Assembly (NCBI GenBank): GCA_023395775.1
Contig: JAEWYA010000244.1
Location: 1 to 42,812, forward strand
Length of the DNA: 42,812 nucleotides
From: Bacillota bacterium
Lineage (GTDB): Bacteria > Bacillota > Clostridia > Oscillospirales > Oscillospiraceae
Direction: 5' to 3'
The notes below the pieces were generated by a model that was given only the letters and a program-made list of their open reading frames with translations, was not told where the DNA came from and ran no database searches. The translations under genes and the position numbers were made by a program. Shown piece by piece: positions 17,451-19,294 of the stretch. How positions within the stretch are numbered: position 1 is the stretch's first letter; every line of letters begins with the position of its first letter.

Positions 17451-17834
17451 ATGGCCACTTCACTTTTGAAGCTGACAATGACTGCCACCGCGCCGACAAC
17501 CAAGGCCAAGCCGACCATGCTCCACTTCTTCAATACGGCTCCGGCGGGCGGATATACCGGCGCCGCCACCTATACGATTAACGCGAATCAATGGGTCGAC
17601 GACTCCGGAACAGCCGTCGCGGCAGGCGGCCTTACCCCGGCAACCACAGATAACGGCTATTACAACCTGTTTATCAACGGCCAATTGCAGGAAGGCAATG
17701 TGGTGACTACTGTTACCGCTACCGCGGTTACCATCACCTTTAGCGCGGAAACGGCCATTGAAGAGGGAAAGATCATCACTCTGGCTGTCACCAACTTTGC
17801 CCCGGAGACAACCGCTCCTGACATCACCGGCTGA
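17451..17834 (+). CDS. Single-domain DUF4183 protein (putative endospore-appendage subunit)
   Basis: AAGGTG RBS; INANQWVDDSG and GYYNLFINGQLQ motifs recognised as DUF4183; Thr/Ala-rich, no signal peptide. Confidence 0.75.
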   Translation: MATSLLKLTMTATAPTTKAKPTMLHFFNTAPAGGYTGAATYTINANQWVDDSGTAVAAGGLTPATTDNGYYNLFINGQLQEGNVVTTVTATAVTITFSAETAIEEGKIITLAVTNFAPETTAPDITG

Positions 17835-17980
17835 TTGCATCAAGTGAAATGAGACCAAAAACCGTTAGGTAATTGGTCGGCAACAACTTCGGGAGTTCTC
17901 GGAGTTGTTGCTACATAGCATCGGCAGGTATTTAAAAGTGGGAATACCTACGGTAATTTTCAGAAAAATGGAGCAATATT

Positions 17981-19294
17981 ATGTCACAGTGCAATTCGCC
18001 TTCGATCACCTGTCTGCTGACGGATGAGAACGGAAATTTGATCAGCGCGTTTGAACCGGGCGCACTCACTTTCAAAATATTGTATTCGGCTAAAAAATAC
18101 CTGGAAAAAGATCCATTTACGGAAAAGAAGCGGATCGCCATTTCCATCAGGGTCCATGTCGTCGTTTATATTGAGGGTAGGGAGAAGTCTTCCCCCATTC
18201 CGTTTTGCGCGATCAGGCATATCTGTATCGACGCTCCAAGAAATGCCTGCCTGGATTTTTCGGTTAAGAGATTTTGCTGCTGCTGTGCGCCGGAAATGTC
18301 GGGAGAGGAGATCACGCGGGTAAACGTTTTGGTTGACTTTGAAACAGAAGCAAGATCCTGCACTTACGCCGACGTTTTGGTCCGGCCTGCCAAACCTACG
18401 GCTTGTGGGAAGATTCTGATCGGCGCAATGAAAATCTATGACTGTGTCTGTTTCAAAACGTGTATTCCCGTCATCTATGATTTACTGCTTTCGGCGATCA
18501 CTTATCAGTATAATGCCTTATCAGATGGAGTAAAAACGGAATACACAGACGCGGATGAACTGACAGAATATGGTCACAAGGGAATTCTTTCTCCCACCAG
18601 CGTCTCATATTACAATTTGTTCGAAAACGGGGTCCTGCAGCCAAATGTCAATTACGCCATATCGGAGGGTCAGCTGAAGTTGCTGACCGCAGACATTCCG
18701 GCGAAAAATGAGTCGATCATTCTGACATTTGTGACCTTCGGTCAAAATCACGGGAAAACGGTTTATGTCACGGACCATAAATATGTCACGGTTTCCGACG
18801 GGATCAAAACGGTATTTACAAACAGCGACGAATTGATTGAATATGGGGACAACGGTATCCCTTCGCCGGATCAAGTGTCGTATTTCAACCTCTATGTAAA
18901 CAGTGCGCTGCAGCCGAAAACAAATTATACGGTCAAGGAAGGCCATCTTGAACTGACGACAACAGATGTTCCTCCCGCTGGAGCGACGATTATTCTTGAA
19001 TCTGTCGTCATCAAGGATTCGGAGAATCTGCTGCTCAAGGCGGAGGCGTATGCCTACAACGCCTATTCGAACGGAAAGAAGATCTATACGGATCAGGATG
19101 AAATCACAATGTACGGGAACGGTGGAATCTCCGACCCGCAGCTGAGCTCGTATCAGAACCTGTTTGTCAACGGTGTCATTCAGCCGCAGATCAATTATTC
19201 GGTCAAGGAGGGCCGCCTCACTTTAAATACGAGCGAAGCGCCGAATCCGGGCGTTCCCATCACGCTGCAGTTTGTAAAAGTTTTTTTAAGTTAA
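17981..19294 (+). CDS. Cys-rich N-terminal domain plus three tandem DUF4183 repeats
   Basis: GGAG RBS; three roughly 85-aa repeats with S(D/N)G..K...T..DE...YG..GI..P...SY.NL..N...QP..NY...EG.L.L, starting at 18497, 18770 and 19043; 14 Cys in the first 165 aa. Confidence 0.8.

Follow-up and report, generated by a model that had tools for sequence, protein, structure and literature searches.

A Compact, Cysteine-Rich Candidate Anchor Beside an F-ENA-3-Type Fibre Gene in an Oscillospiraceae Genome

Introduction

The F-ENA fibres of endospores were identified only in 2025, and it has been proposed that they cause spores to clump. Three F-ENA filament structures (9n0b, 9i65, and 9hze) come from the work of Sleutel et al. 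2025 (PMC12357932). The first of them, F-ENA-3a, was imaged on spores from an uncultivated Anaerovoracaceae. In this C3 filament, a six-stranded beta-barrel neck spaces the DUF4183 trimers, an inserted N-terminal hook locks them, and putative O-glycan densities are carried (PMC12357932). According to the same text, the F-ENA hooks of the Bacillus system dock into the DUF4183 trimer of an anchor, and a protein at the distal tip requires its own hook. In the collagen-free clostridial F-Anchor-3, a single chain supplies the DUF4183 triad, on which AlphaFold 3 (AF3) places three F-ENA-3 chains (PMC12357932). Cysteine-rich proteins are typical of cross-linked spore envelopes (10.64898/2026.09.03.749163). 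Here, two adjacent genes at positions 17451 to 19294 of a 42,812-nucleotide stretch (the window, contig JAEWYA010000244.1 of assembly GCA_023395775.1) are described, which probably represent a two-gene F-ENA-3-type endospore-appendage module in an Oscillibacter-like anaerobe of the Oscillospiraceae.

The reading put forward here, which we hold with good confidence, is that gene 1 encodes the fibre and gene 2 a single-chain base on the spore. An earlier note, made from the letters of the window, had already proposed that gene 2 nucleates and anchors a fibre of gene 1; the domain content, the homology, and the predicted docking of the two proteins now make this probable. The locus would then be a minimal and testable version of the system, with a single fibre gene, a nucleator made of one chain, and a defined hook of 10 residues together with the groove for it.

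The Fibre Subunit

Gene 1 (17451..17834, + strand) encodes 127 aa and gene 2 (17981..19294, + strand) 437 aa. The two open reading frames (ORFs) are adjacent and co-oriented, as first noticed, and gene 2 starts 146 nt past the end of gene 1. In the whole-genome scan, DUF4183 matches were located at 17556–17786 in gene 1 and at 18512–18730, 18791–19000, and 19076–19273 in gene 2. In detail, gene 1 has one DUF4183 (PF13799) match at residues 36–112 (E 1.3e-11; 44.6 bits, Pfam cut-off 25.1), and gene 2 has three DUF4183 stretches (E 1.7e-61). Both proteins exceed the Pfam cut-off, and the family assignment that the earlier note had made is thus borne out. When the four copies are aligned, D51, G60, Y70, N72, L73, N76, and Q80 (gene 1 numbering) are invariant, which includes the residues of the (G/S)Y.NL..N...Q motif that had drawn attention to the pair.

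The gene 1 product is composed of a hook/neck arm (residues 1–36), a DUF4183 head (36–112), and a C-terminal tail. In the alignment of the four copies, the N-terminal arm (about 36 residues) and the tail belong to gene 1 only, with no counterpart in the gene 2 domains, in accordance with the single domain and extended arm described before. Among PDB sequences (phmmer), the best match of gene 1 was 9n0b, a "spore filament protein subunit" of 124 aa (E 7.1e-15), with query residues 1–122 placed on chain residues 1–118 and the start MATSL.KL.M.AT in common; 9i65 (E 3.4e-08) and 9hze (E 9.7e-04) matched more weakly. The arm, including the hook MATSLLKLxMTA, is nearly invariant across 20 homologs, which are 40–84% identical. 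Because of the full-length match to 9n0b from residue 1 and the nearly invariant arm, gene 1 is, as judged from its sequence, a new member of the F-ENA-3 subclass and the putative major fibre subunit. It begins MATSLLKLTM and does not show the Bacilli hook motif M-P-psi1-psi2-x-P-psi3, and NCBIfam gave no match for it. Cysteine is absent from all 21 sequences of the gene 1 family, and Thr makes up 27 of the 127 residues of gene 1.

No signal peptide is expected on gene 1, since the solved homolog 9n0b aligns from residue 1; the earlier claim to this effect stands, and neither protein of the pair has a signal peptide or a cell-wall anchor. This last point also bears on the idea that the pair is not related to spores at all, being instead a phage tail/neck remnant or a surface fibre of vegetative cells. 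All of the closest relatives with solved structures are spore appendages. A tblastn search of 50,697 phage records was without a match, PHROG gave nothing for gene 1, and there are no phage genes among the 33 window ORFs scanned. A phage origin or a vegetative role is therefore scarcely credible.

The Candidate Anchor

Gene 2 consists of two distinct parts. The N-terminal domain (residues 1–170; 17981..18490, + strand) is all-beta, with very long beta strands, and family-specific. It contains 14 Cys, and residues 171–437 contain none. The second part (residues 172–437; 18494..19294, + strand) is a triad of three contiguous head-only DUF4183 domains (Pfam). The description of gene 2 as a Cys-rich domain fused to three gene 1-like domains was accordingly correct. 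Between 4 and 16 Cys are found in the N-terminal domain of all 25 aligned family members. Residues 1–170 match no Pfam family or solved fold, and gene 2 as a whole has no NCBIfam match at E ≤ 1 and neither a DUF11 nor a Collagen match in Pfam. We propose that the N-terminal domain may be the foot by which the protein is attached to the spore envelope.

The earlier note had remarked that no Gly-X-Y gene is present, and this holds for the window and for the 68%-complete source genome, in which the sole Collagen match of Pfam is sub-threshold (21.1 bits, contig C24). The matching region (L087, 949–1632, running off the contig end) is not collagen; it is a basic, PG-rich tandem PGAPGDRKPFGK repeat in a gene downstream of nusA/ylxR, without the Gly-X-Y pattern.

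Searches with the N-terminal domain returned a relative of 281 aa (P0124) in which a compact-anchor N-domain is fused to a different Cys-rich C-terminal region with neither DUF4183 nor a Pfam family. This fusion hints that the domain can serve other cargo. The short matches are mostly truncated or frameshifted anchors, and P0126 (15 repeats) and P0143 (7 repeats) were discarded as unrelated repetitive proteins. The whole-chain Foldseek list is made up mainly of long low-TM alignments, in which only the rows of 9hze and PCSK9 are informative.

Anchors that, like gene 2, combine a Cys-rich N-domain with a contiguous triad are called compact below, and those of the F-Anchor-3 type, which carry an insert, long. 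The N-domain might be a strongly diverged CsxA-like domain of the SPOCS (DUF3794) fold, so that gene 2 would be a domain-permuted F-Anchor-3 seated in a CsxA-type exosporium lattice and not a new mode of attachment. A CsxA-like domain is indeed described for F-Anchor-3 in the main text of PMC12357932, and CsxA is all-beta and Cys-rich with a SPOCS/DUF3794 fold (10.64898/2026.09.03.749163), as the N-domain is also all-beta with many Cys. The DUF4183 positions are orthologous in compact and long anchors, the first domain corresponding to profile positions 168–274 and the C-terminal pair to 252–446. By hhalign, the N-domain profile aligned collinearly with the long-anchor insert over 107 columns, with the same N-terminal motif start in two runs, at a probability of only 5.5%. 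In addition, a protein atlas cluster with Pfam CsxA (PF27077, 58% of members) appeared at rank 18 with a score of 0.84, which is under the lead threshold of 0.9. On the other hand, the best E value of the N-domain profile against 25 long anchors (hmmsearch) was 0.12, the first hhalign run gave a probability of 0.3%, and DUF3794/SipL of Pfam matched none of 33 family members at E ≤ 1, in a set of profiles without the CsxA family PF27077 itself. The source genome also offers no free-standing N-domain paralog from which a lattice could be formed. The genome search for CsxA-type proteins used PF12673 in place of PF27077 (CsxA), and the sole DUF3794 protein found is a SipL-like 461-aa frame (E 3.7e-13). 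A CsxA-like origin of the N-domain is the less likely reading but has an appreciable probability.

Predicted Docking and Polarity

For a complex of one gene 2 triad with three gene 1 chains, the predicted ipSAE values were 0.90, 0.86, and 0.91, as compared with 0.01 for the best control, and they may reflect likeness to the solved filaments. The ipSAE mark for docking is reached by 58 of 80 solved complexes and by 2 of 110 mismatched pairs. The complex prediction that the earlier note had named as a check thus turned out in favor of the pair. The docking runs share at least 98% of their contacts, with a partner pLDDT of 94 or higher. In the model, gene 1 residues 1–9, 11, and 126–127 contact the equivalent gene 2 stretches 215–224, 306–315, and 396–405, and further equivalent contact stretches recur across the three domains at 234–247, 325–338, and 415–428.

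Gene 2 has heads without a hook, and the protein would therefore be confined to the hook end of the fibre. By analogy with the Bacillus system, the hook end would be the spore-proximal one, which would place gene 2 at the base.

Promoter and Intercistronic Elements

The locus was compared with that of an Oscillibacter sp. metagenome-assembled genome (MAG; L008), the only one with which flank synteny was found. After the NifU-like gene there is a GC-rich, terminator-like hairpin of 12 pairs (17222..17248, no strand assigned), which is kept in L008 and marks the upstream limit of the fibre unit. A promoter-like element, AC-N16-CATATACT (17366..17391, + strand), lies 85 nt before the start of gene 1 in a block conserved with L008. 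Its form resembles that of mother-cell sporulation sigma (sigmaK/sigmaE-type) promoters. The sequence AC-N16/17-CATANNNT was found upstream of 19 of 49 fibre genes, as compared with 1.44 ± 1.2 (maximum 8) in 200 shuffles, and the hits are divided between 17 of the 26 compact-type regions and 2 of the 23 long-type ones. A scan for sigma-70 promoters gave 5 sites against 2.9 ± 1.8 expected, which is not above chance.

Between the fibre and anchor genes there is a 15-bp stem-loop (17879..17912, + strand). The RNA of 17835–17980 folds with −51 kcal/mol (z −6.94), and none of 200 shuffles was equally stable. Although the fibre pair evolves faster than its flanks, this intergenic region is 94% identical to L008 at the nucleotide level, more than gene 1 (88%) or gene 2 (82%). 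The stem-loop is likely a partial terminator or mRNA stabiliser, which would set a high ratio of fibre to anchor.

Distribution of the Gene Pair

The anchor survey comprised one genome per species from 185,579 species and showed 349 stretches with relatives; the counts of loci given here are from the best 80. The compact architecture accounts for 55 of these 80 loci and the long one for 25. Long anchors have a gene 1-type gene 9–254 bp upstream in 23 of 25 cases, the other two being one locus cut at the contig end and one without such a gene. Six of the 55 compact loci are cut at the contig end, which leaves 49 for scoring. A same-strand fibre gene is located within 400 bp in 23 of them (21 upstream and 2 downstream), and in three more it is 3.8–5.7 kb upstream. 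The co-occurrence that the earlier note had suggested as a check was thus observed within 6 kb at 26 of the 49 compact loci and not at the other 23. Cultured carriers of the close pair are Papillibacter cinnamivorans DSM 12816 (L010), Clostridium viride DSM 6836 (L018), Lutispora thermophila DSM 19022 (L041), and Acetivibrio mesophilus N2K1 (L055).

For five of these 23 loci the whole genome was searched, and in Caproiciproducens faecalis, Caproiciproducens sp. R1, and Peptococcaceae BICA1-8 a single-domain DUF4183 gene is found on the same strand 14–16 kb upstream. In the other two, an Intestinimonas MAG and Anaerobacillus alkalilacustris, the anchor alone was found at E ≤ 0.001. Within the window's own family, DUF4183 exceeds the cut-off in just 5 of 150 other sampled genomes, and it does not in the single same-genus genome (98% complete). 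All five positive genomes show four matches, three of them in one frame and the fourth in a small frame. The single-domain gene is within about 1.3 kb upstream in all but one of the five. The fibre–anchor module is patchily distributed, but both genes travel together.

The maximum-likelihood tree of 50 fibre proteins places gene 1 in a clade of eight Oscillospiraceae-type sequences, all with compact-anchor partners (support 100/99). Over the whole tree, the anchor-type label changes 3 times as compared with 16.8 in shuffles, a clustering that kinship alone can yield.

These data also concern a further alternative, namely that gene 2 is a spore-envelope protein with a merely structural DUF4183 triad, which does not nucleate gene 1 and is adjacent to it through co-regulation only. 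Such a role would suit the 23 compact loci with no fibre gene within 6 kb and the two of five genomes with no single-domain DUF4183 gene at all. It is opposed by the specific and threefold-equivalent predicted interface, by the four-match pattern of all five family genomes, and, with the reservation on kinship just given, by a fibre phylogeny that follows the anchor type. We consider it highly improbable, and nucleation of gene 1 by gene 2 is retained as the likelier reading.

In 20 of the 23 fibre-less compact loci, the anchor gene is adjoined by genes for NeuB, a UDP-GlcNAc 2-epimerase, a DegT aminotransferase, a GDP-mannose-dehydratase-like epimerase, and a PglD-like acetyltransferase (L011, L013–L016, L020, L021, L025, L027, L029, L030, L032–L034, L037, L043, L045, L050, L056, and L058; upstream of the anchor gene at about 6000). 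The same genes are beside the anchor in only 1 of the 23 compact loci with an adjacent fibre gene. The set is typical of nonulosonic-acid (legionaminic/pseudaminic-type) biosynthesis. With this sugar island beside the anchor and, in three genomes, the fibre gene 14–16 kb upstream, a layout of fibre gene, then glycosylation island, then anchor gene is suggested for these lineages, as is glycosylation of their spore fibres.

Directly downstream of long anchors, a conserved ORF family without a Pfam match is found in 18–19 of 25 loci (L062, L064, L065, L067, L068 at 6616–7068, L070–L081, and L083). A locus often has two members, whose length is about 123 aa or about 296 aa. By hhalign (probability ≤ 0.8%) they are not related to the fibre, the long-anchor insert, or the compact N-domain, and they are absent from the window locus. 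The family may be a further component of the fibre system.

Genomic Setting

The MAG to which the window belongs measures 1.88 Mb in 244 contigs and is 68% complete. The flanks of the pair are housekeeping genes. Those upstream encode a cytidine deaminase, a deacetylase, NifS, and NifU, and those downstream encode a small membrane protein and a GGDEF protein. Flank identity to L008 is 89–98% (NifS 96%, NifU 98%, deacetylase 94%, and GGDEF protein 89%); gene 1 and gene 2 are 84% and 75% identical at the protein level (17451–19294 against L008:5472–7314).

Sporulation genes are present in the genome, for instance those of an alpha/beta-type small acid-soluble spore protein (E 6.3e-25), SpoVAC/SpoVAEB (1.4e-39), and the SipL/DUF3794 protein named above. 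The gene of the mother-cell regulator SpoIIID (E 9.6e-37) is inside the window, at 27763–27999 (− strand), 8.5 kb downstream of the fibre pair; two + strand ORFs that overlap it (27359–27769 and 27782–28189) are probably spurious.

Near-identical DNA occurs in metagenomes from landfill, groundwater, bioreactor, soil, paddy, sludge, and gut, with 14 runs containing at least half of the sampled words. RNA-library contigs from three studies cover parts of gene 1 and its leader (X18) and parts of gene 2 (X19 and X20). They are short and their cover is partial; the uncovered parts carry no meaning, and the contigs provide weak evidence of transcription of both genes.

Elsewhere in the window, all on the + strand, there are a protein of 453 aa that has a C-terminal CAP (cysteine-rich secretory protein) domain (102–1463), a sugar ABC transporter followed by an unassigned stretch and then by L-arabinose isomerase and a class II aldolase (3029–11654), and a hybrid PAS histidine kinase/response regulator of 1295 aa (38867–42754).

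Proposed Mechanism

By homology to the Anaerovoracaceae spore filament, trimers of the gene 1 DUF4183 heads would stack into a beads-on-a-string fibre. The three hook-less DUF4183 domains of gene 2 would fold into a single-chain pseudo-trimer with three hook-binding grooves, lined by the conserved Y-x-N-L-x-x-N-G-x-x-Q-P motif; with such grooves, gene 2 would cap the hook end only and seed the growth of the fibre. The Cys-rich N-terminal beta domain would tie this platform to the spore envelope. Both proteins are without signal peptides; their synthesis would take place in the mother cell, probably at a late stage, under a sporulation-sigma promoter, and the conserved intercistronic hairpin probably keeps the anchor scarce relative to the fibre. 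We infer in this way the polymerisation of this copy of gene 1, its location on the spore, when the pair is expressed, what the N-domain does, and any function in spore clumping or adhesion.

Several points tell against this mechanism. It is built on homology and models throughout; the docking score may stem from solved F-ENA filaments that the model has memorised, and the docking job is unlike the calibration set of the tool. The sigma motif was tested against mononucleotide shuffles only, and the RNA-library contigs are compatible with DNA carry-over. SpoIVA was not found in the 68%-complete MAG, and cultured Oscillibacter relatives have been described as non-sporulating. The compact loci without a fibre gene within 6 kb and the two genomes with the anchor only belong here as well. 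Lastly, the N-domain has no paralog in the source genome and no known partner, and it is the fastest-evolving part of the locus, with 62% identity to L008 as compared with 76–88% in the triad (88%, 76%, and 88% for domains 1–3) and 96–98% in NifS/NifU. Such fast evolution is unlike what is predicted for a foot buried in a conserved lattice.

The same divergence is common for exposed tip adhesins, and gene 2 might thus cap the spore-distal end of the fibre as a tip adhesin and not form its base. With this would agree that no attachment partner is known and that no second protein with a gene 1-like hook, a candidate for a separate tip, was found in the six-frame ORFs of the 68%-complete source genome. 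The architecture of the protein points the other way, as gene 2 has heads and no hook, and the modelled contacts use the hooks of gene 1 and not its free head faces. In Bacillus, the hooks point to the anchor and it is the tip protein that needs its own hook (main text of PMC12357932), and Cys-rich domains are typical of envelope-embedded spore proteins (10.64898/2026.09.03.749163). A distal position is improbable, and the base remains the preferred place of gene 2.

Comparison with Described Systems

The earlier note named collagen-like proteins as tethers or tips, as in Bacillus; collagen-free clostridial anchors are included in the main text of the same paper (PMC12357932). In Bacillus thuringiensis (9hze), the F-Anchor described there is built of three identical collagen-like chains and has an exosporium leader that binds ExsF; the F-BclA tip is collagen-like with a hook. 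Gene 2 differs from it, having no collagen gene beside it, no NCBIfam match, and one chain in the place of three. The hooks differ too, with MATSLLKL in gene 1 as compared with M-P-psi-psi-x-P-psi in Bacillus (PMC12357932). Similarly, the F-Anchor-2 of Paenibacillaceae F-ENA-2 (9i65) is presented as collagen-like, and the hook motif of that system is not that of gene 1.

The closest fibre is F-ENA-3/F-ENA-3a of Clostridium aceticum and the uncultivated Anaerovoracaceae, which is of the same subclass as gene 1, shares the MATSL.KL hook, and is of similar length (124 aa, as compared with 127 aa). F-ENA-3a is putatively O-glycosylated according to the main text of PMC12357932, and gene 1 is likewise Thr-rich.

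For the N-domain, CsxA, CsxC, and CdeC, the Cys-rich all-beta spore-envelope domains treated in 10.64898/2026.09.03.749163, offer a plausible analogue of the mode of fixing; no sequence or profile similarity to them was shown.

The compact form was not found in the DUF4183 or F-ENA literature or in the main text of PMC12357932, whose supplementary figure of anchor variants (17c) is outside that scope and may draw it; among the titles listed from the F-ENA and endospore-appendage literature, none is on clostridial anchors. A compact base with its own cysteine-rich foot thus appears undescribed. It is possible, though we advance it tentatively and would not call it probable, that compact anchors constitute a fourth, undescribed mode of fixing F-ENA fibres. 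In this mode, the fibre would be joined straight to the coat or crust of spores of the Oscillospiraceae type by a beta domain that is specific to the family, has no free paralogs, and bears no relation to anchoring by collagen/ExsF or a CsxA lattice, with sialic-acid-like glycosylation of the fibre suggested in sister lineages.

The principle of a single-chain triad is already known, because collagen-free clostridial anchors with a docked triad are in the main text of PMC12357932, and the gain is therefore incremental and not conceptual. Like F-Anchor-3, gene 2 is collagen-free, is placed beside the fibre gene, and offers three DUF4183 domains of one chain as a docking platform. F-Anchor-3, as described in that text, is composed of one DUF4183, zero to four copies of DUF11, a CsxA-like domain, and two DUF4183, and both DUF11 and the 1 + 2 split were seen in all seven long anchors scanned. 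Any kinship of the gene 2 N-domain with the F-Anchor-3 insert is not detectable or at best marginal. Gene 2 has a contiguous triad, no DUF11, and a different N-terminal Cys-rich domain without a free-standing paralog, and the locus, for which several cultured carriers exist, points to a putative Cys-rich attachment domain with no assigned family.

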